Counted from the first letter of the stretch, positions 17,011 through 43,021 are shown. The stretch is DNA of 64,000 nucleotides from an uncultured bacterium (GCA_903854195.1 CAINVO010000029.1:2557-66556); one strand, 5' to 3'. Program-made: numbers and translations. The notes: generated by a model not told the origin, from the sequence alone.

Positions 17011-17622
17011 GTGTCAAACCCCCCTTTCCTATATCATTTTCTCCATATGGATGTTGAAACAAAAAAAATAACACCTGAAACTATTAAAAAAACTCCAGAA
17101 CCTTCAAAGTGGGAACTCACAAAATTTGCACTAATCCTTCTTATTATTTTTCTTCCTATTAGATTTTTTGCAATCGGCCCCTTTGTTGTTTACGGAAGTT
17201 CAATGGAACCAAATTTCTATACTGGAGAATATCTTATTGTTGATGAAATCTCATATGATTTCATTGCCCCACATCGTGGTGACGTAATAGTTCTTCGCCC
17301 ACCCATAAATACAAATACTCATTTTATAAAACGCGTTATTGGTCTTCCAAATGAAACTGTAAAAATAGACGGGACAATAGTAACAATCATCAATGCTGCA
17401 AACCCAAATGGTTTTGTATTAAATGAACCTTATCTTGCCCACCACAAAGGCCCTTCAGGTTCTTGGACACTTGGATCAGATGAGTACTTTGTACTTGGTG
17501 ACAATAGAGATGTCAGTGATGATTCTCGTATATGGGGTCCTCTAAAGAAAAATATGATTACAGGAAGAGCACTTCTCAGACTCTATCCATTCAAAAGGTT
17601 AAGCTTTCTGCCTGGTCAATAA
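17011..17622 (+). CDS. lepB: Signal peptidase I
   Basis: SSMEPNF (catalytic Ser box), GDNRDVSDDSR (box E); start may be the Met at 17047. Confidence 0.88.
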   Translation: MSNPPFLYHFLHMDVETKKITPETIKKTPEPSKWELTKFALILLIIFLPIRFFAIGPFVVYGSSMEPNFYTGEYLIVDEISYDFIAPHRGDVIVLRPPINTNTHFIKRVIGLPNETVKIDGTIVTIINAANPNGFVLNEPYLAHHKGPSGSWTLGSDEYFVLGDNRDVSDDSRIWGPLKKNMITGRALLRLYPFKRLSFLPGQ

Positions 17623-23228: not shown

Positions 23229-24077
23229 TTACCCAACAAACTGAGCTGGTATCACCATGCGCGCTCCCATTGAGCTATTCTTAAAAACACATGGGCGATG
23301 CTCAACCCGAAAATCACCATCAAATTCAATACTCTGACCTTTTTCTCGTGTAGATATTTGCCAAGCTGCCTGAAGCCTGTTATTTGATTTTGAACAATCA
23401 TTCGGAAAACAAGTAGTGGACTCTCCCCAATCAAGATGTTTTCTTTCTGAGAAATAAGCTGCTCCAAAAGCCAAAACATACCCACGAAAAGTGAGCCACG
23501 ACTTACTTCTTAACAAAAGTTCATCAATGTTCCTATTTTTGGTATTCGAATCAGAAAAAATCTCATTTTTAATGATGCTCAGCGACGGAAGACCTTGAGC
23601 CTCAAACCCATAAAATTGAGTTAGGTCGCATTTTAAAGCAGGGTTGAGATTTTGGCTTCGGAGTACTTTGTTTATTACATCAAAGTTATCCGTCATGGTA
23701 CCAGGATCGAAAACAACAAACACATTCTCCCAAGGTAATTCCTCAGGGAGAGTGAACATTTTATTTAAATCGACCTTAATACCAAGGATGCTCTCTGTGA
23801 AACGCTCAGCATCTGAAACTGCATTGATGAGATTAGTTTCTGACACTTTAAAACGGTTTAGTGAAAGTGCCACCGATAACTGATCAACTCCGAAATTCCC
23901 TTCAATCAGATCTTGTAGACAGAGTGAGAGCTTTTCCAAATCGAATGGATAGCCATTTATTTGACGAAGTTGCCGTTTTATCTCAAACAGCTTTCCATCA
24001 AGGTTACGATACGTTTCGCCTTCGACATTAGTTGCCATGACGTTATTTTCCTTTATTGTTTGTGTTTTTTCCGACAA
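23229..24077 (-). CDS. Hypothetical cytoplasmic protein, no recognisable family
   Basis: 282 aa, non-repetitive, no TM helix; likely start at the second Met (MATNVEG). Confidence 0.4.
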   Translation of the reverse strand: MSEKTQTIKENNVMATNVEGETYRNLDGKLFEIKRQLRQINGYPFDLEKLSLCLQDLIEGNFGVDQLSVALSLNRFKVSETNLINAVSDAERFTESILGIKVDLNKMFTLPEELPWENVFVVFDPGTMTDNFDVINKVLRSQNLNPALKCDLTQFYGFEAQGLPSLSIIKNEIFSDSNTKNRNIDELLLRSKSWLTFRGYVLAFGAAYFSERKHLDWGESTTCFPNDCSKSNNRLQAAWQISTREKGQSIEFDGDFRVEHRPCVFKNSSMGARMVIPAQFVG

Positions 24078-25900: not shown

Positions 25901-26512
25901 CTACATTTTCTTAACATGAACAGCAAGGAATAGACAAGACGGTTTCCAGCCATCCTCGCCAGTTGAGATTTTGAGACGGTTTTTAAGACCGTCTACCTTC
26001 TCGAAGCATGGGTACCCTGGCAAAACATTATTCATCTTACTCAAGAGAGTATCCCAAAGCCATCTGCAAATAGCCTTAGATTCGTGTTGGAAGTGAATAA
26101 AGCCTTCATTCGAAGACCCGAGGGCAATCAGCGGATCATCCCTAATTATGTTTCCGAATTTCCCCGCAAACACCATTAGTTCCTTTATAAAGGCAGGCCG
26201 AAGACCAGCTTGAGCAAATTCCTTTATAATCTCATCCCTTTTCCACCCAAAGAACTGGGGTCCGAGAGCATCGAATTTTACAACTTCAAAATTGACCGTG
26301 TAAACACCCGTAAGGTAATTTTCAAAAGTCATTGAAGTTATTTCGCTTTCATTTTCGACTGAGCAGTTTGCCTCATCGAGCAAGATACCGAGAGTCTTTC
26401 TCGCGTCAATCTGAATATCCCTGAAATCATTTGTTCCGGGCCAAAACCAGTCTCGACGATTAATCCCCTCCTCGTTATCGCAAAATACAATTCTTGGATC
26501 TATTACTTTCAT
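25901..26512 (-). CDS. Hypothetical protein in a GC-elevated islet
   Basis: 203 aa, no TM helix, no recognisable motifs; local GC about 44% versus about 36% in the flanks. Confidence 0.4.
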   Translation of the reverse strand: MKVIDPRIVFCDNEEGINRRDWFWPGTNDFRDIQIDARKTLGILLDEANCSVENESEITSMTFENYLTGVYTVNFEVVKFDALGPQFFGWKRDEIIKEFAQAGLRPAFIKELMVFAGKFGNIIRDDPLIALGSSNEGFIHFQHESKAICRWLWDTLLSKMNNVLPGYPCFEKVDGLKNRLKISTGEDGWKPSCLFLAVHVKKM

Positions 26513-26643
26513 TTTTCTCCTTTCTATTTTTATTTATATTTTTTCAAATATTCATAAAATATTTATGTAGCCAAAATCTAGGCCAAGATTACATAAATGA
26601 CTTAATAAAGTCAAACAAATTTTAACTATCCTACTAGATAAAT

Positions 26644-27879
26644 TTATTTTGTAAAAATTAAACTTTCAAGACTTTTTTCAATATTTTTGGTCACAATATC
26701 GCTATAATTTTTAAAGAAATAATTACATGAAGCAGCTATAGGATCACCTGAATATACCCCACAACCATTTGAAGTGTGCACCAAATACCCAATAGTTATA
26801 TAGTTCCCCTTTTGGTGAGTTGTATAATAATAATTAGTATATAACTGACTCATCCCAGCATCAGAAGAAGACGATAAACAGAAGTTAACATTATTTAATG
26901 TGACACTTGAATTTTTTTCAGGCATCGGAGCATTAGGAGAAACGTAACAGCCATTTGTTCCAATACTTGTACTTGTTGAAGTTGTAAAAACTTCTGGGGT
27001 ACCACTTTGGCCATAGTTTAAGCTGGCCATATCACTATAAAACTTGTTGGGATATTGAAACGAAAAACCAACATTAGAATCAACGTAAGTTTTCCATAAT
27101 TCAGAAGATGCTTGTTTTGTTTGTGTAAATGAATTTAATTCCTGCTGTACGATTTTGTTTTGACCATCAAAACTGATAGGTGTAGCAACGGATGGATCTG
27201 TAGCCAAAATAGTATTTGTCAAAAAGTTAGCATCGAATACTCCAATATTATTTACCACCACAAAGTTATCAGCACTCAAAGGAACAATTTCACCACGCCC
27301 ATATGTACTATCTTGCCCAGATGAACCAAAAATATGAAGACCTCCCATTGTATTGACCGAAACATTAGCTGTAGTTGACGCAGACAATTTGCCATTTGAG
27401 TCATACCCTGAGGTCATCCAAGTATGAGTTTTTGAATTAAAAAAATATGTTTGATTAGGTGAGATACCAAAAGTATCGGTAATTATCATTGATGATGAAT
27501 GAACTTTCTGTATGTATATTTCTGGTTTTGTGTTTCCTTTTGTGTCTTTCTCACCAAGAACTAAAATTGACATGACCTTTCCTGTTTGAATATTCGAATC
27601 TGTATCAGTACTTGGAGAAATTTCTGAAACCTGCCAATCACTTGGATACCAGAAAGAAAATCCAAAATCTGCATCAGTATACTGCTTTGCACTTGAAGTT
27701 GATGCAATTGTTGATGTTTGATTCTGTTGATCTGTACTAGTACCACTTGCAACGTCCTGATTTGTGATTGGAATAGAGGAATTACTTATATTATAAAAAT
27801 ACACGATTCCAATAATTACAAACAACACTACAATAATACTTACTAGAATTCCGACAAAACCTTTTTGTGATTTTTTCAT
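26644..27879 (-). CDS. Prepilin-like (class III signal) surface protein with a large Ser/Thr-rich extracellular domain
   Basis: N-terminus MKKSQKGF + hydrophobic helix (type IV pilin-like leader, no Glu+5); 411 aa. Confidence 0.55.
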   Translation of the reverse strand: MKKSQKGFVGILVSIIVVLFVIIGIVYFYNISNSSIPITNQDVASGTSTDQQNQTSTIASTSSAKQYTDADFGFSFWYPSDWQVSEISPSTDTDSNIQTGKVMSILVLGEKDTKGNTKPEIYIQKVHSSSMIITDTFGISPNQTYFFNSKTHTWMTSGYDSNGKLSASTTANVSVNTMGGLHIFGSSGQDSTYGRGEIVPLSADNFVVVNNIGVFDANFLTNTILATDPSVATPISFDGQNKIVQQELNSFTQTKQASSELWKTYVDSNVGFSFQYPNKFYSDMASLNYGQSGTPEVFTTSTSTSIGTNGCYVSPNAPMPEKNSSVTLNNVNFCLSSSSDAGMSQLYTNYYYTTHQKGNYITIGYLVHTSNGCGVYSGDPIAASCNYFFKNYSDIVTKNIEKSLESLIFTK

Positions 27880-27897
27880 ATATGTTAAGATAATACC

Positions 27898-28230
27898 ATG
27901 TTTATTTTTACAATTATTCCTTACTGGGTATGGATAAGTCTTTCAGCTATCTTCTTTGGAATTGGGGAATTTCTATCTAAAAAATTTGCAATGAATCCTG
28001 GCTGGGCATTATTTTCAATTTTTATTCTAGTAGACATTCTAAGCGCTGTTGCCTGGCTCCCGGCAATTTTTGAAAAGAATCAATTATCAATTACTGGGGT
28101 CATTTGGTCTATTGTTTCTTTGATGGCTACAGTAGCTATTGGTGTACTTGCTTTCAATGAAGAACTGACACTGACGCAATGCATTGGCTTAGCAACAGGC
28201 CTTGTATCTGTAGTTCTACTCAGCAGATAG
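27898..28230 (+). CDS. Small 4-TM membrane protein (SMR/DMT-superfamily-like)
   Basis: 110 aa, four helices, conserved Glu in TM1 (GIGEFLSKK). Confidence 0.45.
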   Translation: MFIFTIIPYWVWISLSAIFFGIGEFLSKKFAMNPGWALFSIFILVDILSAVAWLPAIFEKNQLSITGVIWSIVSLMATVAIGVLAFNEELTLTQCIGLATGLVSVVLLSR

Positions 28231-28244
28231 TTATAGTAATTTTT

Positions 28245-29240
28245 TTATAATTGTATTTGACTAGCCAATACTACAAATGTGACCACGTTACTTGTTCCGT
28301 TCAGATTTCTGACTGCTATGGTATTAACACCAGGGCTTATTATTCTCATGTACATGGCACACATCATTCCTGGTTGGCAATCTGCACCAACAGAACCTGG
28401 AACAGAAAACGACAAACTAGTCCCATTATTTGAGGATGAAACATTATTTACTGGACCACCAGAGAAAAGTACTGTGTTTGTTTGTTGAAAACCTGATCCG
28501 TAAATAGTTACCTGACTACCAATTCCTCCTGATGTTGGAGATACTGAATTTATTGCTGGAACCTGACTATTTACACTACCGTTTACATTTATACTTGCAC
28601 TTGTTTGAGCGCTCTGACCATTACTTCCACGTACAGTGAATGTTGGTGTAAACACACCTACTGAATGATACGCATGAGTGAATGTTGATGTTTGGTTGTA
28701 TATTTGTTGAGCTGTTACTGAATATGCCCCCATCATATTGCTATAAACTTCATCACCCCAAACAACACCATAACTCAACCCTCCTCCAGTAACGTCTGTT
28801 GCATGAACTGTCCACGTACCGCTTTGATCAACGTTTAAAGTAGTAGGACTATCTAGACCATTAATAACTGGTTGGTTCTGATTATTTTGATTAACAACGC
28901 AACCTATACCAACAATCAAAGCTCTAGTTTGAGGACCTACATATCCGGCTGAATAAAGATTGTTTTCTCTCTGAAATCTTTGCACTGCAGACAAAGTCAT
29001 TGAACCAAAATATCCAGTAGGTCCAACAGATAAATACCCCTTTCCATTTAAATACGCCTGCAAACGGCTAACTTCACCGTTCGTGTAGCCATCTCGGCTA
29101 CCATAACGCATATTATAGTTTAGAGTAACGCAGCCATATGGCTGAACATTATCTGCAGACACCAAAGAAAAACCGCCAGAAATAAAGGAAACCGCCATCA
29201 AACCGAAACAAAAAACACCTGAGATTATATATCTTTTCAT
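28245..29240 (-). CDS. Secreted protein with peptidoglycan-binding domain (PG_binding_1) and C-terminal IPT/TIG domain
   Basis: Signal peptide; GEVSRLQAYLNGKGYL..GYFGSMTLSAVQRFQ (PGBD); VPAINSVSPTSGGIGSQVTIYGSGF (IPT/TIG). Confidence 0.65.
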   Translation of the reverse strand: MKRYIISGVFCFGLMAVSFISGGFSLVSADNVQPYGCVTLNYNMRYGSRDGYTNGEVSRLQAYLNGKGYLSVGPTGYFGSMTLSAVQRFQRENNLYSAGYVGPQTRALIVGIGCVVNQNNQNQPVINGLDSPTTLNVDQSGTWTVHATDVTGGGLSYGVVWGDEVYSNMMGAYSVTAQQIYNQTSTFTHAYHSVGVFTPTFTVRGSNGQSAQTSASINVNGSVNSQVPAINSVSPTSGGIGSQVTIYGSGFQQTNTVLFSGGPVNNVSSSNNGTSLSFSVPGSVGADCQPGMMCAMYMRIISPGVNTIAVRNLNGTSNVVTFVVLASQIQL

Positions 29241-29294
29241 ACACCTAGAGACGTACAGAAATGATCACTATTACAGCGGTATTTAATTTAAAAA

Positions 29295-30995
29295 TTATTT
29301 CTTCATAACCAAACGGACCAAACGAATATCCAAATATGTAAATTTTGAGCCAAGCTTATTTTTTACAGGTGCAAGAAAGAAAACTTTTGAAGAAAGATTC
29401 TTCAATTCTCTTAACGCAGATTCTATTTTTTGTCGCTTAACTGATGAAATATGAGATGCAAGATATTCAACATCAATAGATGGATCTTCCTCTATGAGTT
29501 TTTCAATATGACTGACAACAGTTTCTGGAGTTAAATCTCTTTTTTCAGCAATTCTAGTAAGCGGAGTTTTTGAAACAACATACTCCAAAGTAACATCGAG
29601 AGTTGAAAGTTTTTTAGCCTTTTCGACAACCCCAGTAATTTTATTTATTATTTTCTTTCCACCATTTGCACCAACGACGCCCCCATTTCTAATCAAGAAA
29701 TCTTCCTGTGTTCTGTGAATAGCTTCTATGGATGTTTCAGCCAAAGCATTTTTAGCAGATTCGGAAAGACTCCGGAGCTTTTGATCAAACTCCAAGACTT
29801 CTTCATTCACCTGTAGTGCCATTTGATTAAAACCAAGCAAAGACAAACCAGCAAGGGTACGCACACGTGAAAGAGCAACGTACCCCATCCCTTTTTCAAA
29901 AGATCTAGATAAATCAACCTCTACAGCATCCAAACTCATTCCCTGACTTTTGTGTACTGTGATCGCCCAAGCAAGTCTCAAAGGATACTGAATAATTTCT
30001 GCTTTTACATTTCCTTCATCTTCAATGCGCCAACTCGCTTTTGCAATTGAAAGAATTTTTCCTGTTGCTGTTCGTATCACCGGATCCTCATTTTGCTTAC
30101 ATGAGATCACTACTCCTGAAGTCCCGTTTACAAACCCTGCTTCATAATTATTTTTTACACACATAACCCTGGCGCCGACTTTTAATTGTAAAAGTGTGGG
30201 CGCCAGACACGTTTTTTTTATCAAATCAACATACTGCTGTTTTCCGCGACTAGCCATTTCATAAGTTGTCACATCCCCGCCTATTTTATCAAGAGACTCG
30301 GCATTCACTTTATCAACATCAATATTATGAGTATATAGTCGCGTCGGCTCAATATCCATTTCCACTTTTTTCTGATAACGCTCTTCTAGAAAAGAACCTA
30401 TGTCCGAATCTAAATCATTAGAACGAATAGCGTTAAGAACCGTCAAAAAATTATCATCAGTCTGTCTATACTGAGTAGTGAGATAGCATATTGCAAACTC
30501 GGAGTCTTCCCAAGCTTTTGATCTAAAAACAAAAAAAGCTTTTGGCTCCCCCATGCGGGAAACTGGCGGCAACTGAAAAAAATCACCGACAAGCACAACT
30601 TGTATTCCCCCAAAAGGTTTGGTAGAACGTCTAAAATTTTTCAATATCTTATCAATCAAATCCAATCGAAAATGGTGAAGCATAGACACTTCGTCAATTA
30701 TCAAAACTTTTACCCTTTCAAAACGTTTCCAAAGATACTGTCTACCCTCTAAATAGTCTATATCCTTTTCTGACAACGTATCGCGAATACCAAGCCCTGA
30801 CCATGAATGAATAGTCACTCCCCCCATATGAGTAGCGGCAATACCAGTAGATGCAGTAACGGCCACTTCAACGTCATTTTCATGTAAGTAGGAAATATAA
30901 CGATTTACCAAGTGTGTTTTACCTGATCCAGCGGATCCTGTAATAAAAACATTGATGCCTGTCTTTAAGATTTCGAATGCTTCGTCTTGATTCAT
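29295..30995 (-). CDS. PIF1/RecD-family ATP-dependent DNA helicase with C-terminal HTH-like region
   Basis: Walker A GSAGSGKTH, motif II LIIDEVSM, QLPPV motif, 566 aa. Confidence 0.8.
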   Translation of the reverse strand: MNQDEAFEILKTGINVFITGSAGSGKTHLVNRYISYLHENDVEVAVTASTGIAATHMGGVTIHSWSGLGIRDTLSEKDIDYLEGRQYLWKRFERVKVLIIDEVSMLHHFRLDLIDKILKNFRRSTKPFGGIQVVLVGDFFQLPPVSRMGEPKAFFVFRSKAWEDSEFAICYLTTQYRQTDDNFLTVLNAIRSNDLDSDIGSFLEERYQKKVEMDIEPTRLYTHNIDVDKVNAESLDKIGGDVTTYEMASRGKQQYVDLIKKTCLAPTLLQLKVGARVMCVKNNYEAGFVNGTSGVVISCKQNEDPVIRTATGKILSIAKASWRIEDEGNVKAEIIQYPLRLAWAITVHKSQGMSLDAVEVDLSRSFEKGMGYVALSRVRTLAGLSLLGFNQMALQVNEEVLEFDQKLRSLSESAKNALAETSIEAIHRTQEDFLIRNGGVVGANGGKKIINKITGVVEKAKKLSTLDVTLEYVVSKTPLTRIAEKRDLTPETVVSHIEKLIEEDPSIDVEYLASHISSVKRQKIESALRELKNLSSKVFFLAPVKNKLGSKFTYLDIRLVRLVMKK

Positions 30996-31118
30996 TGGGA
31001 GTGATTATACTACATACCCCAATGAAATAAATATGATCAATATATGGTATTAACGCTTAGGTGGATAACCGAGGTATAATTGTGTCTGTTACTATATTTA
31101 ATAATTAAAATAAAAAAC

Positions 31119-31427
31119 ATGTCAAAAAAAATTATAATATCGATAATAATTGCGCTATTGGTAATAGTTGGTGCTGTCTGGTATTTTAGTCAGCCTGCAA
31201 ATCCTTTAACACCAGATACTTCGGATCTATCAGCCTCAAGTTCTCAACAAATAGATCAAAATAGTGACACCAGTTCAACCACCCCCACAAACGAAACATC
31301 AGTTTCAAACACAAGCAACACAGACGTTTCAATTAATCAGGATTTAAATGGAGTTGATACACAACTCAATGCACTAGGTACTGATAATGCAACAACAGAC
31401 AAAGGTCTAAACAACCCAAATCAATAA
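31119..31427 (+). CDS. Small membrane-anchored Ser/Thr/Asn-rich protein
   Basis: MSKKIIISIIIALLVIVGAVWYF anchor followed by a low-complexity tail. Confidence 0.4.
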   Translation: MSKKIIISIIIALLVIVGAVWYFSQPANPLTPDTSDLSASSSQQIDQNSDTSSTTPTNETSVSNTSNTDVSINQDLNGVDTQLNALGTDNATTDKGLNNPNQ

Positions 31428-31452
31428 ACAATAATTTTAAAAAATAAAATAT

Positions 31453-32268
31453 ATGAATACTAAAAAAATTACCACAGCCCTTATTACCATTGCTACTAGT
31501 GCATCTTTACTAGCTGGTGTAGCAATTGTACCAACTACCTATGCTGATTCTACAAGTACAGCCAACACAGCAGGTCTAAAATCAGGCGCAAACGCCGCTG
31601 CCCGACTAGCAAAAATAATTGCAAGAAGTGATACAGCAATCACCGCACGGATTGCAGACCTAAACAAACTAAACACAAGAGTTCAGGGATTAAAAAATGT
31701 ATCTTCAACCGAAAAAACAAATATCTCCAATGATGTCCAGACTAACATCTCGGGGCTTACATCATTAAAAGCAAAAATTGATGCAGACACTGATGCAACA
31801 GCAGCACTTAATGACGAAAAAACAATAACAGGTAGTTTCAGAATTTACGCATTGGTAGTTCCTCAAGGTTCCATTTTGGCATCAGTAGATAGAGTAAATA
31901 CAATAGTTGACCTAATGACACCTATTGGATCAAAGATTCAATCACGGATCACAGCTGACCAAACTGCAGGAAAAGATGTATCAGCTCTACAAACACTACT
32001 ATCAGATTTTAATTCAAAAATAGCTGACGCAAAAATCCAAGCAGTAGCAGCTCAATCTGGTGTTGTATCCCTAGTTCCAGACCAGGGCAACAAAACAACA
32101 CTTGCTTCAAACACAGCAGCTCTAAAGGCAGCAAGAGCAAACATCAAGACAGCCACAAATGATTTACAAACTGCACGACAAGATGCAAAAAAAATCACAC
32201 AAAGCTTAAAGACTATGGACAAACAGTCTTCAACAAGCTCATCCGCTTCATCTACAGTTAGCCAGTAG
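31453..32268 (+). CDS. Secreted coiled-coil / alanine-rich protein, unknown function
   Basis: Signal peptide (..TTYADS), heptad-like Ala/Thr/Lys-rich repeats, 271 aa; followed by a terminator. Confidence 0.45.
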   Translation: MNTKKITTALITIATSASLLAGVAIVPTTYADSTSTANTAGLKSGANAAARLAKIIARSDTAITARIADLNKLNTRVQGLKNVSSTEKTNISNDVQTNISGLTSLKAKIDADTDATAALNDEKTITGSFRIYALVVPQGSILASVDRVNTIVDLMTPIGSKIQSRITADQTAGKDVSALQTLLSDFNSKIADAKIQAVAAQSGVVSLVPDQGNKTTLASNTAALKAARANIKTATNDLQTARQDAKKITQSLKTMDKQSSTSSSASSTVSQ

Positions 32269-32299
32269 GTTTGTAGTATTTCAAAAAAATTATTTAATT

Positions 32300-32331
32300 T
32301 AAAAAAACACCCCTTGCGGGGTGTTTTTTTA
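32300..32331. terminator. Intrinsic terminator (bidirectional)
   Basis: aaaaaaa-CACCCCttgcGGGGTG-ttttttt. Confidence 0.75.
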
Positions 32332-32347
32332 ATATATAAATACAAAT

Positions 32348-32656
32348 TTATTTTACATTTGAAACTTCCTTAACATTCTCAATTTCAGAATTGTCTGTAC
32401 ACCTAAGTGGATTACTTCCTGGCGCAGGAACACTAATAGTATACAAATATCCAGTATTACATCTGTACAAATAGCAATGCGACGGAACTGTTGCAGAACA
32501 AAAAACTTCTTCTGTCTTTTTCCCTGAGACAGCTTGCTGAATTGACGTTTGGTCGCTTGTCGACATGTATCCTATTTTCTCGTTTGACTTAAAGTAAAAG
32601 AAACCTGCAGAAACCAAAACAACCACAATCGCACCGATAGCAATATTTTTTTTCAT
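32348..32656 (-). CDS. Small secreted Cys-containing protein
   Basis: 102 aa, signal anchor, 6 Cys in the C-terminal half. Confidence 0.4.
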   Translation of the reverse strand: MKKNIAIGAIVVVLVSAGFFYFKSNEKIGYMSTSDQTSIQQAVSGKKTEEVFCSATVPSHCYLYRCNTGYLYTISVPAPGSNPLRCTDNSEIENVKEVSNVK

Positions 32657-32764
32657 TTGCTAATTGTACCAAAGTTTTAAATACAAAAACTGTTTATAAG
32701 GTTGAATAGTGCAAACATTATCACAACAAGGCCAGCTGTCTTAAAAAATACTACAGATTTTAAA

Positions 32765-33343
32765 CTATTGTTTAATCATAAAATCCAACTTATTACTAAT
32801 CACACTCCAAGGTTTAACATAAACCTTATATAGACCTGGTCTCATACCCACATATGATGAACAAGGTAACCCTGACTCACCCAAAGATTTCGTACACAAC
32901 TGATTGGGTAAGGTTATCGTAAGGGTTGTGGCACCAGCTGGAACATAACTGTTAGTTTCAATCACCCCAGATTGCCCTGTTTCATTTTCAAACCAAATGG
33001 CTGTTCCACCTTCAAATCCATTAAGGTAAATACCTTTAATTGTAAGAACTGTTCCTTGGTGGTCAGTCTGCTTAGGATTTATGGAATATATTTTTGGAAT
33101 TTTTGTTCCATCATTTACGAAAGAGTCTTTGGTGCTGGTAGCTATTGGGGCGACTTCACTTGAAGTACCAATCGACACACTCGTATCACTCTGAGCATTG
33201 TTTAATGAGTTAACATCCTGAGTATTTTTAATCTCAGGTTTTTTGTTATTTTGTAAATAAAGATACAAAATGAAACTGGCAATTAGAACTACAATTACAG
33301 TAATTAAAAATGGAACAATAAATCCTCTTTGTGATTTTTTCAT
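32765..33343 (-). CDS. Prepilin-like (class III signal) protein with IPT/TIG-like beta-sandwich domain
   Basis: N-terminus MKKSQRGFIVPFLITVIVVLI; C-terminal GTVLTIKGIYLNGFEGGTAIWFEN. Confidence 0.5.
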   Translation of the reverse strand: MKKSQRGFIVPFLITVIVVLIASFILYLYLQNNKKPEIKNTQDVNSLNNAQSDTSVSIGTSSEVAPIATSTKDSFVNDGTKIPKIYSINPKQTDHQGTVLTIKGIYLNGFEGGTAIWFENETGQSGVIETNSYVPAGATTLTITLPNQLCTKSLGESGLPCSSYVGMRPGLYKVYVKPWSVISNKLDFMIKQ

Positions 33344-33503
33344 ATTCTTTTAATTATATAATAAATTTATCAAACCTAAAGTAAAAATAATATATTGAGA
33401 CACCTCAACTGGTGGACTACTCGGTTTCAGTACTAAGGTAGTGAGACACTATATGGGGTTTTTAGTGCAATTTCAGGGCCTTGCTCAAGGTTCTCGGGTC
33501 GGA

Positions 33504-34097
33504 CTATAATTTTCGGAAAATGAAGTTCAGATAATTCTTTGAGCGTGGTTTAAAAGTTTCGAAATACACAAGTTCAAAACCATGATTTTTACATAAGCCT
33601 ACAACTTCATCTTTCTGATAGAAACTAAACCAGCGAGGCATATCAATCCCTGAACTTTCTTTATATTCTTCGGTGTCACCCTCAATGAGGCCAAGAGCAA
33701 AGATCCCAGAATAGTTGAGAACGCGAGAAATTTCCTTGAGAGAAATAGTAAAAGATTTCTTAGGAATATGGAGAAGTGCTGTATATGACCATACACCATC
33801 AAATGACTCGTTTTCAAATGGCAGGCTATCAAACCCTGCAAGGATAGATTTGAGACCTCTTTCGGAAGAGAGTTTCACCATCGCTTCCGAGGCATCTACA
33901 CAAAAGACTTCCTTTCCAGATTGTTGAAGCAATAATCCGTCTCTACCTGGACCACTCCCAGCATCGATTATTTTCTTACCAGACAATTCGATGAATTTAT
34001 CTAAGAACGCACGAGGAAAACGCTCCCAGAAATCGATGGTTTCGTCGTCATACTCCTTCGCCATTTTGTTGTACGTGTCGATTGTTTGTTGATCCAT
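33504..34097 (-). CDS. Class I SAM-dependent methyltransferase
   Basis: Motif I IIDAGSGPGRDG, 197 aa. Confidence 0.7.
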   Translation of the reverse strand: MDQQTIDTYNKMAKEYDDETIDFWERFPRAFLDKFIELSGKKIIDAGSGPGRDGLLLQQSGKEVFCVDASEAMVKLSSERGLKSILAGFDSLPFENESFDGVWSYTALLHIPKKSFTISLKEISRVLNYSGIFALGLIEGDTEEYKESSGIDMPRWFSFYQKDEVVGLCKNHGFELVYFETFKPRSKNYLNFIFRKL

Positions 34098-34186
34098 GAT
34101 TGATGATTTTAACTTATATTTTCGGATTCAGGTAATTGAGCCGCTATACTTAGCAAGTCTTCGGTCATACCGATATTAAGTTTTAT

Positions 34187-34276
34187 TGGCGGAGGAGGTG
34201 GGATTTGAACCCACGAGAAGCTTTCGCCCCTGCCGATGTTCGAGATCGGTGCTTTCAACCACTCAGCCACTCCTCC
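34187..34276 (-). tRNA. tRNA-Ser (CGA), type II, CCA encoded
   Basis: Reverse complement folds: acceptor GGAGGAG/CTCCTCC, anticodon loop CTCGAAC, long variable arm, T-loop TTCAAAT. Confidence 0.8.
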
Positions 34277-34377
34277 ATAATCTAATTAGCCTCATGAATA
34301 TAGCAGTTTTTTGCCTTTTTTACAAAAAATGTTATAGTACTTGAGTTATTTTTGGACAGTCAGATATTTAATTTTAT

Positions 34378-34449
34378 GGCCCTATCGTCTATCGGTTAGG
34401 ACATCGCCTTTTCAAGGCGAGAAGCAGAGTTCGACTCTCTGTAGGGTCA
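34378..34449 (+). tRNA. tRNA-Glu (TTC)
   Basis: Acceptor GGCCCTA/TAGGGTC, anticodon loop TTTTCAA, T-loop TTCGACT. Confidence 0.8.
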
Positions 34450-34493
34450 CAAATTTTAGCCAAATACAGTAATAGGAGTATACTTATCTGTAT

Positions 34494-34694
34494 ATGAACG
34501 AAGACAAAGAAAATAAAGATTCTTGCCGGAATAGTAGGCGTCATTTTCATGGGAGAGTATTCCCAGGCATTTGGCTTATTGTTATTGGTGGTATTTTTCT
34601 TTTAAATAATTTTGGATATTTACAAGGGGAAGCTTGGGGAAAGTTATGGCCCATATTTATTATCATCCCGGGATTATTTATGATATTTCGTTAA
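34494..34694 (+). CDS. Small 2-TM membrane protein
   Basis: 66 aa, basic N-terminus then two hydrophobic helices. Confidence 0.35.
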   Translation: MNEDKENKDSCRNSRRHFHGRVFPGIWLIVIGGIFLLNNFGYLQGEAWGKLWPIFIIIPGLFMIFR

Positions 34695-34708
34695 ATTCTT
34701 GATAGATA

Positions 34709-34963
34709 ATGAAAAAAATATTTAGCACGAAGAAAATTATTGAATTGTTTGGATGGTATGGAACGATTGCAATAATTCTTGCGTATATTCTAGTCAGTTT
34801 TTCTATTATCAGTGTGACCAATATTTGGTATCAATTACTCAACGGGACTGGGGCTTTAGGTATTATTTTTGATGCTTTTTATAAAAAAGATTATCAGCCT
34901 GGTGTACTAAACATTGTTTGGGCTAGTGTTGCTGTAATTGCTATTTTACGAATACTTTTTTAA
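34709..34963 (+). CDS. Small membrane protein
   Basis: 84 aa, 2-3 hydrophobic helices. Confidence 0.35.
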   Translation: MKKIFSTKKIIELFGWYGTIAIILAYILVSFSIISVTNIWYQLLNGTGALGIIFDAFYKKDYQPGVLNIVWASVAVIAILRILF

Positions 34964-34974
34964 TTTAAAATACT

Positions 34975-35466
34975 ATGAAAAATTCACAAAAAGGATTTGC
35001 TGTTCCCTTTTTAACTACTATAATTGTAATTCTGATTGTGAGCTTCGGTGTATATCTTTATTCACAAAGCAAAAGATCTCAACCTATCACCCCAGAGAGC
35101 ACAATCTCCACATCAACTCCCCCATCTGAATCTGACTTAAATAAATCGTTAAGTATTTCAACAACCACTTCTACAAACGTACCGGTAACTATTAACATTG
35201 ATTTATGTGACAACAATAGCCCCGGATACTGTTTTGGAAGTGGCGGACAACCAAGCAACAAAACAATGAAGGACGTTACTTTATGGTACAGAATTTCAAC
35301 AGATACCATGTATGTTATTGGGATACAAACTACTAACACTAATGGGAATGATAAATTTTATGGTGTCGACATTGATTTTAGTAATCATATATATACAAAC
35401 AAAGAGACTAATGAAATGGAAAATGTTGTGTTATCACTTTTTGCGGATAAAAAAATAAAATTATAG
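34975..35466 (+). CDS. Prepilin-like (class III signal) protein with Ser/Thr-rich linker and small C-terminal domain
   Basis: N-terminus MKNSQKGFAVPFLTTIIVILIV; 163 aa; followed by a terminator. Confidence 0.5.
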   Translation: MKNSQKGFAVPFLTTIIVILIVSFGVYLYSQSKRSQPITPESTISTSTPPSESDLNKSLSISTTTSTNVPVTINIDLCDNNSPGYCFGSGGQPSNKTMKDVTLWYRISTDTMYVIGIQTTNTNGNDKFYGVDIDFSNHIYTNKETNEMENVVLSLFADKKIKL

Positions 35467-35490
35467 TTTTTTTGTAATATTAGAATAAAT

Positions 35491-35537
35491 AAAAAACCTG
35501 TTCCGCAAAATCAATTGCAAAACAGGTTTTATTTTTA
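35491..35537 (+). terminator. Intrinsic terminator
   Basis: AAACCTGTT..ccgcaaaatcaattgca..AACAGGTTT-tatttttaaaa. Confidence 0.65.
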
Positions 35538-35577
35538 AAATCATATACCGACTTGGGTCGCTGATAACTGATAAATT

Positions 35578-36378
35578 TTATCTTTTAAACATCGACGCTC
35601 TTTGAAACATCTTGAGCGCTTTGATTGGATATTTTTTTGCCATGTGCCAATCAATTGGATCATGTGCATCACCGCTTGGACGAAGCCTCCCTTGGGCATC
35701 AAGACTGATGTCAGGAAACTCCTTTATCAGAGGTTCAGCCAGATACATCGTATCGGGGCCAAGACCTCCGGCGACAGCAATACCAAGATCTGGAAAGTTT
35801 TCTTTGATGGCACGGACGAATGGTATCATCTTGAGACCATTCATACCCAAACCTTTTCCTCCGCTTTTATCCAACAAAACGAAGTCAACAACCTCAGCAT
35901 AATCCTCTAGTCTTTCGACTAGTGCCGCCGGATCATCCCCCACCTGATCAAAGGCATCTCTGCCAACCTGAAGGATGACCTCCAAACGTTTCCTTGATCC
36001 GTGAACTGCGTTTGAGATTTCCGCGGGTTCAGGCCAAATCATATCCAGCTGTAGAGCGTTTACACCCATACCGCCATAGCCTATTGCGCGACAAAGCGTC
36101 TCGGCGAGATTTGGATTATTCTCGTAGTCAGCAAAATGAAGACAATTCATAACCCGAGGAGAATCAGAAGAAAATATTCCAGAAATCTCCTCCTTCTTAG
36201 GAAAAATCGAAGACCACTGTGTCTCCAACCCGTTCAGTGTTTTGTAGCTCATCATCACGCCGACGTGGAGCCTTCGGAACAAACCGAACCTGCGGCTGCT
36301 GTTAAAAACTTCAAGCATTTTCAGTACTTGGTCATACTTCGTAAAATCGGTAATACCGATATATGGAACTTTTGTCAT
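35578..36378 (-). CDS. TIM-barrel protein of the phosphoribosylanthranilate isomerase (TrpF/PRAI) family, GC-elevated
   Basis: N-terminal KVPYIGIT, VDFVLLDKSGGKGLGMNGLKM and IAVAGGLGPDTM match PRAI phosphate-binding motifs; 266 aa; about 50% GC. Confidence 0.5.
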   Translation of the reverse strand: MTKVPYIGITDFTKYDQVLKMLEVFNSSRRFGLFRRLHVGVMMSYKTLNGLETQWSSIFPKKEEISGIFSSDSPRVMNCLHFADYENNPNLAETLCRAIGYGGMGVNALQLDMIWPEPAEISNAVHGSRKRLEVILQVGRDAFDQVGDDPAALVERLEDYAEVVDFVLLDKSGGKGLGMNGLKMIPFVRAIKENFPDLGIAVAGGLGPDTMYLAEPLIKEFPDISLDAQGRLRPSGDAHDPIDWHMAKKYPIKALKMFQRASMFKR

Positions 36379-36467
36379 TCTAAAATCCTCCCAATATTTG
36401 AATTTACTTATCTAGAATGACATTAAAATAAGTGGCAAAGAAAGTCAAATATCCAAAATTACGGAAA

Positions 36468-38624
36468 TTATTTCATCAATAACGCATTTACAAAACTTCT
36501 TGTAGCTTTGAAAAAATTACCAGTTCCATGTATTAGATTAGAAGGTTTCAAAATTTCAACAGCATTAGCTTCTTGAAATTTGATAAGTGCATTTCTGGTA
36601 GCTTGGCCAAATATGTTTGTTTCATAACCCAACGATCCTGCACCTTTTTTTGAAACAAGGAATCCTTTATTATTTAAAAATTTCTGAAGACGCATTACGT
36701 CTAAATCTTTTAATCCTAACTTCAAATCCTTCAAGAAAAGAGCAATTTGACCATGTTTGAGAATATTGTCCTGGGTTGATGTCGCAACCAATCTGCCACC
36801 ACCAATTGGTCCAATTCTTGGACCTACGGACACAACCGGAAGATTTATTGAAACCACCGGCGCCACAAAATCCGGATAATTGTCTGAGTGACCATACCAA
36901 ACTGGAGATGAAAAATCCCATAACGGTTCAGAATTTAATGTTGTGGTAAAAATATCTTTAGTCTTATCATAAAACCATGTTTGGTCTCCATCTATATATC
37001 CGTCCCCTCCTCCAGATAAAATATTATATGTTACATTTGTACTCGTACCCATATTATCTACATTTCCAATTGCAAATGTTGGACCACTTGGAGAAACAAA
37101 CCAACCTAAATTTGACATAGAATCCAAATAACTTATTTGACCATCAAGTTCACCTATCAATCCTCCAACATTCGATGTTAACCCAACAACTAAACCTGTA
37201 GAGAAAGAATTACTAATAGGATCATTGTTTACCCTGCCAATGAGACCTCCGACATAGTCCTCTCCAGTAACGTTTCCTGTAGCATATGAATTCACGACAG
37301 ATGTTGGGAAAGGATAACCTCCTGCTGAACTTTCTCCAACAAGGCCTCCGACATTGTTGGTACCATGAATATTTGCTGTAGAGTATGTATTTTCAATGTG
37401 ACCCTTGTCGTTAAAGCCCACGAGACCTCCTGTGTAACTTCCTCCGGTAATGTTTCCTTTTGTAAAAACTTTCACCACCTGACCATGGACATTATATCCA
37501 ACTACCCCACCAACAGAGTTGCTACCAGTAATATTTTCATTCAATAAACCAAAATTTTTAATAACTGCACCATTAGTTTGAGAAAATAAACCGGCAAAAA
37601 ATTCAGACGAATTTTCAAATAAGTTTGAAATTACATGACCTTGACCATTAAATGTGCCGGAAAAATAAGGTGAGACTGAACCAATTGGTGTAAATCCCGC
37701 ACCATTGTTGAATAAATTAGAATTAAAATTTGGATTTAGAGAATCAGAAATATTTGTAGCAGAGCAATCAACATCATCAGTGAGTATGAAATTTTTGTTT
37801 AAAAAAATACCACTTGCTGCTGCTATGTTTTGAAGTTGTATACAGCTGTTTATTTGAAATGGACTTCCTACACTTCCGTCACCACCTGCAAAAAATGGTT
37901 CCATTGTTGTAAAGGTTTGATTTGAACTAGTAGCAAAATGACCATTTCCATCATCCATAATCACCCTAAAATTATAAGTTGTGCTAGGAGTAAGGCCATT
38001 AATATCTACAGACCATCCAGGATTTGCATTTATATTTTGACCATAACTTTCTGTTTTTCCATACTGAACAACTGCATTAATCAATGCAGGATCTGCATTC
38101 CAAACAATATTTGCAATTGTGTCTAAAGTGTTTGTGCCCCATGCATCAATACTACCGGCTGGACTTATATTTATTATGATTGGATCAATACTAACTACTG
38201 AGTCTGAGTCATTATTTATATAGTTAAAATTATAACTGCCAGAATATTTGGCATTAGCAACATTATGCAAAGTTACAGTAATAGCAGATCCTACAGGAAT
38301 ATCAGAATCAATATAAATATAGGCATCACTACCACTATAAAATGGTGCCGCGAGATTTTTCAAAACCCCATCAACAGATACAGTTGCCGTTGCATTGCTT
38401 AAATCAAAAGATCCATCAAAACTAAAATGTGCAACCACCCCGGTTGCAGGAATGTCTGTTTCGTTTGTAAAGTTGAAAGTATAGTCAGTGTTGGTATTCG
38501 CCACATAAGAATTAGCTGAATAGGAAAAATTACTAAGTGTGCCAGCGTAAACGTAATTTACCCCTGCAAAGAACAAAACCACTAAATAAAAAATACAACA
38601 AAAAAAACCGATACTTCTTTCCAT
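36468..38624 (-). CDS. Large secreted surface protein: FN3-like domain, GLUG-type repeats, C-terminal peptidoglycan-binding domain
   Basis: Signal peptide; repeats NVGGLVGES / YVGGLIGRV / NVGGLIGEL / SVGGVVGYN / YTGGLVGFN; C-terminal DLDVMRLQKFLNNKGFL..GYETNIFGQATRNALIKFQ (PG_binding_1); 718 aa. Confidence 0.6.
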   Translation of the reverse strand: MERSIGFFCCIFYLVVLFFAGVNYVYAGTLSNFSYSANSYVANTNTDYTFNFTNETDIPATGVVAHFSFDGSFDLSNATATVSVDGVLKNLAAPFYSGSDAYIYIDSDIPVGSAITVTLHNVANAKYSGSYNFNYINNDSDSVVSIDPIIINISPAGSIDAWGTNTLDTIANIVWNADPALINAVVQYGKTESYGQNINANPGWSVDINGLTPSTTYNFRVIMDDGNGHFATSSNQTFTTMEPFFAGGDGSVGSPFQINSCIQLQNIAAASGIFLNKNFILTDDVDCSATNISDSLNPNFNSNLFNNGAGFTPIGSVSPYFSGTFNGQGHVISNLFENSSEFFAGLFSQTNGAVIKNFGLLNENITGSNSVGGVVGYNVHGQVVKVFTKGNITGGSYTGGLVGFNDKGHIENTYSTANIHGTNNVGGLVGESSAGGYPFPTSVVNSYATGNVTGEDYVGGLIGRVNNDPISNSFSTGLVVGLTSNVGGLIGELDGQISYLDSMSNLGWFVSPSGPTFAIGNVDNMGTSTNVTYNILSGGGDGYIDGDQTWFYDKTKDIFTTTLNSEPLWDFSSPVWYGHSDNYPDFVAPVVSINLPVVSVGPRIGPIGGGRLVATSTQDNILKHGQIALFLKDLKLGLKDLDVMRLQKFLNNKGFLVSKKGAGSLGYETNIFGQATRNALIKFQEANAVEILKPSNLIHGTGNFFKATRSFVNALLMK

Positions 38625-38691
38625 ATTGGCTATATTATATCAATCCAAACCTTAAAAGTAAAAACCAAAAAATTACTTGAAAAAAGTCAAA

Positions 38692-41653: not shown

Positions 41654-41726
41654 GCGCGGTTAGCTCAGTTGGTAGAGCGCAACATTGACGTTGTTGATGT
41701 CGGGGGTTCGAATCCCTCACCGCGCA
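41654..41726 (+). tRNA. tRNA-Val (GAC)
   Basis: Acceptor GCGCGGT/ACCGCGC, D-arm GCTCAGTTGGTAGAGC, anticodon loop TTGACGT, T-loop TTCGAAT. Hand indexing here disagreed by 1 nt with the ORF track, so coordinates are shifted to match the track. Confidence 0.8.
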
Positions 41727-41755
41727 CAAAAAAAACACATAAAATTTTATTTATT

Positions 41756-43021
41756 ATGAAAATACTAGGAATAGAAACGAGCTGCGACGAAACAGCAATA
41801 TGCATAATTGAAGCGACAGAAAGTAATCAGGAAAACCTTGGAACTCTAGCATCGACATCGGCTCCAACGTCGACATCAACCTCAAACATTTCCATTCTAG
41901 GCAATGCTCTAAATTCTCAAACAAAAATACATGAAAAATATGGTGGAGTATTTCCAATGATGGCTAAACGTGAGCATGTCGCAAACATCATGCCCCTACT
42001 CGAGAATGCACTTAGTGAAGCTGAGCTTTTGCAAAAAAACAATCCAGTTAAAATATCACAAAATGACCTTGAAAAAATAAAAGGAATATTCAAAAAAGAA
42101 ATTGGCTTATGTGAAAATTTTATAAATTTTATTTCAACTTTTAATAAGCCTGAGATAGAGGCTATTGCCGTTACCGAAGGACCAGGACTTGAACCAGCAC
42201 TTTGGGTGGGAATAAACACTGCAATTTGTCTTGGAATCGTTTGGAGTATTCCTGTCATCCCTACCAACCACATGGAGGGTCATATAGTTTCATCTCTACT
42301 TGTTCCAAATATTTCACCAAAAGATGATAAAGAAAAAATAGTAACAGAACAAATCGCAAAAATATCATTTCCAGCAATTTCCCTACTCATTTCTGGTGGG
42401 CACACTGAGCTTGTACTACTGAACGATTGGCACTCCTATGAAATTATTGGTCAAACGAAAGATGACGCTGTTGGCGAAGCCTTTGATAAAGTAGCTCGAA
42501 TGCTTGAACTACCCTATCCAGGAGGACCTCACATTTCCACACTTGCAGCAGAATATAGATCATCAGGAATATATAGCAAAAACCACAAGGAGTCAGGCGA
42601 ACTAGAAAAAATATCTTTTCCACGCCCAATGATTAAATCTCCCGATTTTGATTTTTCTTTTTCTGGACTGAAAACTGCTGTTTTGTATTTTTTGAAAAAA
42701 AACCCTGATGCAAATAAAAACGCTGTCGCTTGTGAGTTTGAAGATGCAGCCACTGAAGTTTTGATTGAAAAAACAAAAAAAGCCTTAGAAAAATATGCTG
42801 CACAAACACTCATCCTTGGAGGTGGGGTGACTGCAAATACTTACATACGAAAAAATTTTGCTGATTTAGCTGAAAATCTTAATATAAAAATTTATTTGCC
42901 AATTCAACAACTCTCCACAGACAACGCCATAATGATAGCCATAGCTGGATACCTAAAATATTCACATGACGGGGTTAGCACTTTAGATATCAAGGCTCGA
43001 GGAAATTTATCATTGCAATAA
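41756..43021 (+). CDS. tsaD: tRNA N6-adenosine threonylcarbamoyltransferase TsaD (Kae1/Gcp family) with low-complexity insertion
   Basis: MKILGIETSCDETA N-terminus, conserved His pair region (HMEGH) and GGV motifs. The ORF-track N-terminal extension runs through tRNA-Val and is rejected. Confidence 0.85.
   Translation: MKILGIETSCDETAICIIEATESNQENLGTLASTSAPTSTSTSNISILGNALNSQTKIHEKYGGVFPMMAKREHVANIMPLLENALSEAELLQKNNPVKISQNDLEKIKGIFKKEIGLCENFINFISTFNKPEIEAIAVTEGPGLEPALWVGINTAICLGIVWSIPVIPTNHMEGHIVSSLLVPNISPKDDKEKIVTEQIAKISFPAISLLISGGHTELVLLNDWHSYEIIGQTKDDAVGEAFDKVARMLELPYPGGPHISTLAAEYRSSGIYSKNHKESGELEKISFPRPMIKSPDFDFSFSGLKTAVLYFLKKNPDANKNAVACEFEDAATEVLIEKTKKALEKYAAQTLILGGGVTANTYIRKNFADLAENLNIKIYLPIQQLSTDNAIMIAIAGYLKYSHDGVSTLDIKARGNLSLQ

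Follow-up and report, generated by a model that had tools for sequence, protein, structure and literature searches.

A Glu5-less, prepilin-like N-terminal module on predicted exported proteins of Patescibacteria

Three proteins with a common N terminus

This work concerns three genes in a 64,000-nucleotide (nt) stretch of DNA from an uncultured bacterium (GCA_903854195.1, CAINVO010000029.1:2557-66556; the whole stretch is referred to below as the window). Their products, p411, p192, and p163, are named for their lengths in amino acids (aa) and begin with nearly the same sequence, a short leader and a hydrophobic helix that recall the class III signal peptide (SPIII) of type IV prepilins. We refer to this N-terminal unit, in the form described below, as type B. 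Positions are counted from the putative cleavage site, Gly-1 being the last residue of the leader and Phe+1 the first of the helix. The genes and their parts are as follows.

26644..27879, minus strand: p411, 411 aa, predicted exported; type-B module, stalk, and two globular domains, the first PsbP-like
27859..27879, minus strand: leader of p411, M-K-K-S-Q-K-G, residues 1-7, with Gly-1 as the putative prepilin-peptidase site
27793..27858, minus strand: hydrophobic helix of p411, F8-Y29, 22 aa, without Glu+5 and without Pro (sequence and AlphaFold)
32765..33343, minus strand: p192, 192 aa, predicted exported; type-B module, stalk, and an all-beta (IPT/TIG-like) domain
33323..33343, minus strand: leader of p192, M-K-K-S-Q-R-G, residues 1-7
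33254..33322, minus strand: hydrophobic helix of p192, F8-L30, with Pro at +4 and without Glu+5 (sequence and AlphaFold)
34975..35466, plus strand: p163, 163 aa, predicted exported; type-B module, stalk rich in Ser, Thr, and Pro, and a two-Cys domain of ~85 aa
34975..34995, plus strand: leader of p163, M-K-N-S-Q-K-G, residues 1-7, the exact consensus leader of the module found throughout the Candidate Phyla Radiation (CPR, or Patescibacteria)
34996..35061, plus strand: hydrophobic helix of p163, F8-Y29, with Pro at +4 and without Glu+5 (sequence)

All three open reading frames (ORFs) singled out by a first-pass annotation of this DNA are present with the N termini it gave; their strands, listed above, were missing from it. 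After the leader, the sequences continue as MKKSQKG-FVGILVSIIVVLFVIIGIVYFY in p411, MKKSQRG-FIVPFLITVIVVLIASFILYLYL in p192, and MKNSQKG-FAVPFLTTIIVILIVSFGVYLY in p163. The class III-like character noted earlier is evident in each case: a short basic leader ends in Gly and is followed by Phe+1 and a hydrophobic run of 22 to 23 residues. An acidic residue (Glu or Asp) at +5 is indeed missing from all three (0/3). Pro, described as lying at +4 or +5 in two of the proteins, is present in p192 and p163, but at +4 in both. These two proteins share 21 of 32 N-terminal residues. Past residue 32, no significant similarity was found among the three, in line with their description as otherwise unrelated.

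The back-translated 24-nt motif ATGAARAANTCNCARARRGGNTTY occurs in three copies in the window, compared to 0.00 expected, and shuffled sequences contained no match (0/100 shuffles). A six-frame scan of the window revealed no further N termini combining [KRQ]GF with a hydrophobic stretch and no canonical G-F-T-L-I-E pilin. The first 24 nt of the three genes are A-rich and almost the same, a likeness that A-rich codon use would produce. Local duplication of a gene family was ruled out since the C-terminal parts of the proteins are unrelated. A common promoter or 5′ untranslated region cassette was ruled out since the DNA upstream of the ATG codons does not align beyond A/T-rich spacing, and an RNA element since the Rfam matches were tRNAs only.

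Beyond the helix, p411 matches the Pfam families PsbP_2 (32.7 bits; gathering cut-off, 27) and PsbP (27.7 bits). Its AlphaFold model, based on a 63-sequence alignment, has a mean predicted local distance difference test (pLDDT) score of 85.7; the N-terminal helix covers residues 8-28 only, residues 32-55 have pLDDT <50, and globular domains occupy residues 64-235 and 262-411. Foldseek matched this model with a probability of 1.0 to the PsbP structures 2xb3 and 4rth and to BT_1490 (3hlz), and no pilin was among its matches. In p192, the TIG match is below threshold (16.3 bits versus a gathering cut-off of 20.9; E=0.0096). The model of p192 contains a helix at residues 9-32, a disordered segment (pLDDT <50) at residues 35-72, and beta strands at residues 84-190 that form an all-beta domain. 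One p192 orthologue, P0274, carries PF01833, and an orthologue is labelled Candidatus Taylorbacteria. No Pfam or NCBIfam family matched p163 at a meaningful score; prolines at residues 37, 40, 50, and 51 break its helix soon after the membrane segment. The C-terminal domains had previously been described as Ser/Thr-rich, IPT/TIG-like, and small globular. These calls are borne out in part: a TIG-like domain in p192 has the sub-threshold match, the all-beta model, and the orthologue with PF01833 on its side, p411 proved to be PsbP_2/PsbP-like, and p163 matches no family.

The hidden Markov model (HMM) check proposed with the first-pass annotation, N_methyl (Pfam PF07963, E<=1), gave no match in p411, p192, or p163; neither did TIGR02532 (NCBIfam, E<=10) or Pfam ComGG (E<=1). 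Since the tested canonical pilins with the same leader scored 26.5-42.4 bits with N_methyl and the p411 homologue P0066 scored 21.4 (cut-off, 21.2), the N_methyl and TIGR02532 negatives do not reflect a failure of sensitivity. 

SPIII is defined as a short hydrophilic leader ending in Gly or Ala followed by 20-25 mainly hydrophobic, alpha-helical residues; Glu5 is there "often, but not always" and is thus not obligatory (PMC10191384). Type IV pilins are defined by an alpha1 helix of ~50 residues packed on a beta-sheet head (PMC8179133, PMC10191384), which the window proteins lack because their helix is short, their stalk is disordered, and, in p163, prolines follow the membrane segment. Overall, p411, p192, and p163 have all the sequence features of SPIII except the optional Glu5, and they have neither a match to the curated HMMs nor the structure of a pilin. 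Judging by the models, they are not pseudopilins. The earlier proposal of a pseudopilin/adhesin family does not agree with a helix confined to residues 8-28 or 9-32, a disordered stalk of 35-40 residues, and PsbP-like or all-beta domains in place of an alpha1C/beta-sheet lollipop.

Distribution and conservation of the type-B module

A scan with the 24-nt pattern, using one genome per species, yielded at least 118 loci, and 121 matches were translated. Among the matches listed, 64/121 were type-B proteins of 75-717 aa (MKNSQKGF-[VI]-[VA]-P-L-L...IGGG-x-Y-x-Y) and 33/121 were canonical pilins (MKKSQKGF-T-L-[IV]-E); short or spurious ORFs (19/121) and others (5/121) made up the rest. An identical eight-residue start is thus found on 33 canonical Glu5 pilins and on 64 Glu5-less proteins. 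The canonical pilins came from Ruminococcus and other Clostridia, Verrucomicrobia, Acidobacteria, Proteobacteria, and CPR (L011, L048, L068). The 64 type-B records comprised 45 from named Patescibacteria lineages, 17 unclassified ones, and 2 with other labels. The named lineages included Paceibacterota, Taylor-, Zambryski-, Nomura-, and Harrisonbacteria, Minisyncoccia, and records labelled Saccharibacteria.

We also searched a profile of 35 positions, derived from 52 type-B N termini, against 1.84 billion cluster representatives. At least 2,783 representatives matched at E<=1e-3 (62 at E<=1e-10); for so short a profile this number is a lower bound, and the lower-ranking matches may include some canonical pilins. 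All matches listed lie at the annotated start or no more than 15 residues from it, in proteins of 53-720 aa. The best 145 of the 2,783 matches carry a variety of domains: Kre9_KNH Ig-like (23), PsbP_2 (23), Psg1 (6), PKD (4 and 3), TIG (3), and also DKNYY, Big_7, and PG_binding_1. None of these 145 contains N_methyl and none has Glu+5 (0/145); their commonest leader is MKNSQKGF (55/145).

Because the ectodomains differ so widely, type B is a shared N-terminal module and not the protein family that had been suggested. As far as can be judged from these searches, it is almost wholly confined to Patescibacteria, where it stands at the head of unrelated ectodomains. The motif is therefore very strongly enriched beyond the three window proteins both in the genome collection and in the profile search, and the restriction to these proteins that the first-pass annotation had named as an argument against a prepilin-like signal was not observed. 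The flanks of related metagenome loci contain one extra type-B copy in 271 kb, so the three copies within 9 kb of the window represent a local cluster. As a rough guess, a genome has from a handful to ~10 copies.

The anatomy of the module is as follows. The leader M-K-(K/N)-S-Q-(K/R)-G is followed by Phe+1 and a helix of 22-23 residues, often with Pro at +4 or +5, which in most relatives ends in GGG-x-Y-x-Y. Next comes a disordered stalk of 35-50 residues rich in Ser, Thr, Asn, and Gln, and then a non-pilin ectodomain.

To estimate conservation around the putative cleavage site, we used 120 homologues of p411, ~60 of which have a type-B start. Since these homologues were fetched via the C-terminal domain, their N termini were sampled without bias for the leader. 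The counts for the type-B homologues are as follows.

Position -3: Gln, 35/60
Position -2: Lys/Arg, 53/60
Position -1: Gly, 57/60
Position +1: Phe, 47/60 (Ser, 7)
Position +4 or +5: Pro, 34/60
Position +5: Glu/Asp, 0/60

In the 52-sequence alignment of type-B N termini, Gly-1 is the sole invariant column. To avoid circularity, a metagenome collection was scanned for MKNSQK-xx-[VI][VA]PLL with both middle codons left free. Position -1 was Gly in 38/41 cases, Ala in 2/41, and Val in 1/41; position +1 was Phe in 40/41 and Ser in 1/41. The codons GGT, GGC, and GGA, as well as TTT and TTC, were all in use. A prepilin-peptidase site needs Gly or Ala at -1 (PMC10191384). The sequences MKNSQKA/F at L129 and L134 (the slash marks the putative site) are still permissive for cleavage.

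The PsbP-like ectodomain is also found behind other N termini. Among the 120 p411 homologues, ~12 have plain anchors, ~8 have AxA signal peptides, and one, P0066, has a canonical prepilin signal, the source of its N_methyl score. Since the same ectodomain sits behind interchangeable N termini, type B acts as an export/anchor signal. A second conserved N terminus, MNSFLGFVVGLLQ..LLGFVQQHPELPQ, was detected in ~25/120 homologues (P0026, P0034, P0038, P0045, P0094, P0096, P0109, and others). Its consensus is M-N-S-F-L-G-F-V-V-G-L-L-Q-x-x-L-x-L-L-G-F-V-Q-Q-H-P-E-L-P-Q; it lacks a basic leader, has a short Gln-containing hydrophobic stretch, and contains G-F. This N terminus is absent from the window and may represent a further signal for sorting or anchoring that is specific to the lineage.

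Within CPR, type B is tied to pilins by what look like intermediate forms. At L041 (CAZVAN010000002.1, minus strand), adjacent genes at ~3307 and ~3912 begin MKNSQKGFAVLEGLLILVIIGIIGGTGWY and MKTQKGFAVLEG. In both, Glu5 is combined with an end of the type-B kind (GG-x-G-x-Y) and a stalk of low complexity, and one has the Y-x-D-x-x-Y-G-F motif of the PsbP-like domain. N_methyl matches neither gene. From their sequences, the pair seem to stand midway between canonical pilin signals and type B. At L118, a modular pilin (N_methyl plus Laminin_G_3) is encoded ~3 kb from a type-B gene. In the 271 kb of type-B locus flanks, two canonical pilins were found, at a distance of 7-8 kb.

Genomic setting of the three genes

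The window has ~37% G+C and carries the housekeeping genes of a small-genome bacterium, including those for GyrA, initiation factor 2 (IF-2), LepA, BipA, FtsA/FtsZ, leucyl-tRNA synthetase (LeuRS), TsaD, peptidyl-tRNA hydrolase, and signal peptidase I. Among the loci listed, the most closely related DNA comes from metagenome-assembled genomes of Paceibacterota, the best match being the BipA gene (75% identical). The bacterium belongs to the ultra-small Patescibacteria. The three type-B genes lie within a 12-kb stretch that is rich in exported proteins and is itself placed amid housekeeping genes.

26600-38650: exported-protein island with the three type-B genes
28245-29240, minus strand: PG_binding_1/PKD protein, within the island
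29295-30995, minus strand: PIF1-type helicase with an HTH_40 domain, interrupting the island
31116-31427, plus strand, and 32348-32656, minus strand: small anchored low-complexity proteins, within the island
31453-32268, plus strand: signal-peptide protein, within the island
34190-34276, minus strand, and 34378-34449, plus strand: two tRNAs, which interrupt the island, as does a methyltransferase
36468-38624, minus strand: GLUG/PG_binding protein of 718 aa, within the island
17011-17622, plus strand: signal peptidase I gene

Apart from these three, the exported proteins in the window carry either ordinary AxA-type signal peptides or anchors of an unrelated kind, and the K-G-F N terminus therefore represents a distinct class in this organism. 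Among the Pfam-scanned ORFs of the 64-kb window, no Peptidase_A24, T2SSE/T2SSF, PilM/N/O, or N_methyl was detected; the earlier statement that the peptidase gene is not in the window thus holds for every ORF scanned.

Several other features of the window were recorded. Two tandem small genes (7808-8212 and 8202-8597, both minus strand) match T4SS_pilin PF18895 (33 and 30 bits) and TrbC/VirB2. They adjoin a gene for an SBP_bac_1 solute-binding protein with an uncleaved-looking N-terminal anchor (8599-9903, minus strand). Apart from this pair, the window showed no genes of type IV secretion. The longest TsaD-like ORF (41669-43021, plus strand) begins within a tRNA gene (41654-41726, plus strand), so its true start must be downstream. 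Even with a start at 41729, the protein (430 aa) would have an N-terminal extension, since its TsaD domain does not begin before residue 140. Five ORFs of 203-513 aa, all on the minus strand, had no Pfam match at the thresholds used (23229-24077, 25901-26512, 35578-36378, 49277-50818, and 62718-63941); the last has a signal peptide with a VKA/Q site.

Relation to prepilin-type signals and possible role

Type B resembles the class III prepilin signal in its short basic leader ending in Gly, Phe+1, and ~21-22 hydrophobic residues, and the literal MK(K/N)SQKGF leader is also found on N_methyl-positive pilins. Presumably, the leader also matches the classical ..Q-K-G/F-T-L-I-E leaders of Pseudomonas, Neisseria, and Dichelobacter pilins. 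The differences are that type B reads F-[VI]-[VA]-P-L-L where the prepilin signal reads F-T-L-I-E, that its helix ends in GGG-x-Y-x-Y, that Glu+5 is absent from all 60 homologues, and that PF07963 and TIGR02532 do not recognize it. Moreover, the helix is followed by a disordered stalk, whereas type IVa pilins have alpha1C and a globular head. PilFind, which demands an acidic residue at +5, would reject type-B proteins.

Glu5-less prepilin-peptidase substrates are on record in the form of cap subunits such as ComGG, PilK, and GspK (PMC10790768). These minor pilins lack Glu5, as type B does, but they have the pilin fold, occur once per system, and are encoded in operons with H/I/J partners, none of which is true of the window proteins. 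Since such substrates exist, the absence of Glu5 is not unprecedented. The view that a Glu5-less family would be unusual for a type IV pilus substrate is therefore justified as to the number and context of type-B proteins but not as to precedent. Bacillus subtilis ComGG starts ..RGFIYPAVL and, like p192 and p163, has Pro at +4.

In modular pilins (Streptococcus sanguinis PilB and PilC; IPR012902 plus an extra domain), a pilin-type signal is likewise fused to adhesive or Ig-like modules, in an arrangement that is common and diverse (PMC8179133). They retain Glu5 and the N_methyl signature and contain the whole pilin module, to which a short loop joins the extra domain; type B, in contrast, consists of a membrane helix only and a long disordered linker. 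CPR has modular pilins near type-B genes (the L118 protein) and with type-B ectodomains (P0066, N_methyl plus PsbP). The sugar-binding proteins of Sulfolobus resemble type B in having a prepilin-type signal with no Glu5 requirement, a non-filament ectodomain, and a Ser/Thr-rich linker (PMC3387779). Their processing by the same peptidase as pilins and their dependence on assembly genes have been shown experimentally (PMC3387779), while type B is known from sequence; the systems also belong to Archaea and Bacteria, respectively, and their leader and consensus sequences differ. Archaeal class III signals on non-pilin proteins (PibD substrates) are characterized by a [KR]-[GA]-hydrophobic motif, a hydrophobic stretch, a non-filament ectodomain, and dependence on pilus-like assembly genes; the first three of these are present in the sequences of the window proteins. 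Last, we compare, by description only, PilX1 and PilX2 of the saccharibacterium TM7x. These CPR proteins likewise start with a helix, end in large non-pilin domains, and lack a predicted PilD signal, and they were proposed to be adhesins; they differ in that their genes lie within pilus loci and that they are modelled as minor pilins of the lollipop type (PMC11623550).

The reading that we favor from the sequences, although it could prove wrong about as easily as right, is that type B is a CPR-specific, Glu5-less class III-type signal-anchor that is clipped by PilD and displays non-pilin ectodomains. The anatomy, distribution, and conservation of the module and its lack of a pilin fold are direct observations, from which we infer insertion, cleavage, and display. 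Sec/YidC would insert the helix with the N terminus inside and the C terminus outside, leaving the basic leader in the cytoplasm. PilD, encoded outside the window, would then remove the seven-residue leader after Gly-1 at the cytoplasmic face of the membrane and may N-methylate Phe+1. The mature protein would be held by its helix, and the flexible stalk would cross the wall and place the ectodomain on the cell surface. Lacking Glu5, alpha1C, and a globular head, type-B proteins would probably not be built into the body of a filament.

The case for cleavage rests on a leader identical to that of real prepilins, on selection at Gly-1 and Phe+1, on the precedent of ComGG, and on the near-universal presence of PilD in CPR. 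In Pseudomonas pilin, mutagenesis reportedly showed that cleavage needs Gly-1 and not Glu5. ComGG has no Glu5 and yet is cleaved by ComC (PMC10790768), and nearly all CPR bacteria have PilD and type IV pili (PMC6744442).

Several observations weigh against this reading. In addition to the lack of N_methyl and TIGR02532 matches and of pilus or peptidase genes in the window, some proteins keep the anchor but have lost Gly-1: P0002, the closest p411 homologue (55% identity), reads ..KKD/YAVF; P0003 and P0080 read ..RKN/F and ..NKD/F; and P0272, a p192 orthologue, reads ..SQKKH/LAIVF. At L125 (position 8236, plus strand), the sequence is MKNSQKV/F, with Val-1. Cleavage, if it occurs, is something that at least some members can do without. 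On CPR contigs with type-B genes, canonical pilins can carry quite different leaders (..HRSG/F and ..TSSG/F), so co-variation of type-B and pilin leaders is unsupported. The conservation of G-F could also reflect shared origin together with another constraint at the membrane interface.

These points favor the strongest of the alternatives, according to which type B is a pilin-derived relic that serves as an uncleaved N-in/C-out anchor. The leader would stay, and G-F would persist through descent or because of a constraint that has nothing to do with a peptidase, for example, one on targeting, helix capping, or the translation-initiation region. Orthologues with Asp, Asn, Val, or no Gly at -1 and paralogues with plain anchors appear viable, the linkage to pilins at other loci is loose, and the near-identical A-rich first 24 nt of the three genes would fit a constraint of this kind. 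In addition, Parcubacteria are reported to be rich in transmembrane-helix proteins with few recognizable signal peptides (PMC4508563). However, a bare anchor needs positive charge only, yet Gly-1 is invariant in the alignment, Gly or Ala occupies this position in 40/41 sequences of the free-codon scan, and synonymous codons vary. A K-G-F sequence at the start of a transmembrane helix, as in prepilins, would be expected to be cut in a cell with PilD unless this were selected against, and the Gly is conserved. The upstream DNA, moreover, is not conserved, so the genes have no promoter or leader cassette in common. We consider an uncleaved anchor possible but doubtful.

Two further alternatives tie type B to the pilus machinery itself. 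In the broader one, which we think unlikely, Patescibacteria would have turned the prepilin signal into a general surface-display route, a bacterial counterpart of the archaeal bindosome: PilD would clip the Glu5-less leader from many non-pilin proteins, and the pilus machinery would extract their bare alpha1N helices and mount them as interchangeable tip cargo or in a pilus-like array on the surface. The narrower one, closest to the first-pass idea, is that the PilD-cut, Glu5-less helices become true cargo of a type IV filament, as a tip subunit or in a bindosome-like assembly, giving interchangeable tip adhesins or binding modules. The Glu5-less subunit of type IV filaments is indeed the capping one (PMC10191384, PMC10790768), modular pilins with grafted adhesive domains are widespread (PMC8179133), and the saccharibacterial PilX1 and PilX2 combine large C-terminal domains with "non-canonical signal peptides" (PMC11623550). 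Class III signals and pilus-like assembly genes also serve the sugar-binding proteins of Sulfolobus (PMC3387779), and clusters in Paceibacteria contain several "pilin signal peptide" genes beside pilBCDMT (PMC9763046). The ectodomains are adhesin-like, too (Ig, PKD, TIG, and peptidoglycan binding). Against this, type-B proteins have no pilin head or alpha1C for docking to other minor pilins, the three genes sit amid housekeeping genes with no H/I/J-type partners or machinery nearby, and pilin linkage elsewhere amounts to the two canonical pilins per 271 kb of flanks. We think assembly into a filament unlikely as well.

Very improbable, finally, is a Sec signal peptide cut by signal peptidase I after GGG (in the consensus) or S-F-G (in p163) to release soluble proteins: the peptidase is encoded in the window, and the consensus ..I-G-G-G/V-Y formally fits the small-residue rule at -3/-1, as S-F-G in p163 likewise does, but p411 (..VIIGIVYFY..) and p192 (..IASFILYLYL..) have no such site, the hydrophobic run of 22-23 residues extends beyond the glycines into Y-x-Y, the clear substrates in the window have classical sites (VSA/D, YA/D, VYA/G, and ASA/Q) and shorter hydrophobic regions, and the invariant Gly-1 and Phe+1 would be left unexplained.

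Class III signals, Glu5-less peptidase substrates, modular pilins, and archaeal non-pilin substrates are all known, and type B is of a known kind in this respect. The variant itself, CPR-specific, HMM-negative, devoid of a pilin head, and present on thousands of non-pilin proteins, appears to be without earlier description. A literature search turned up related work on CPR pili, "pilin signal peptide" clusters, and modular pilins but no paper that describes a Glu5-less K-G-F-x-x-P-L-L module, and the database names of type-B proteins are hypothetical or spurious.

CPR bacteria live attached to other cells, and their proteomes contain many unannotated membrane-tethered proteins and few recognizable signal peptides (PMC4508563). 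A lineage-wide signal that is missed by N_methyl and TIGR02532 would mark out much of the surface proteome of CPR, and the 35-position profile is a simple handle for listing the proteins that carry it. The variants of the site (Val-1, Ala-1, ..KKD/Y, ..RKN/F, ..NKD/F, and ..SQKKH/L) would be useful natural controls for cleavage. If the leader is not processed, type B would be a clear case of a pilin N terminus recycled as a plain anchor. If PilD does process it, the bacterial substrates of prepilin peptidases would widen from a few pilins to a broad non-pilin set, as in archaea, and pilus biogenesis would be linked to surface display. Should the general surface-display route be real, these episymbionts would gain a swappable repertoire of host-binding modules.

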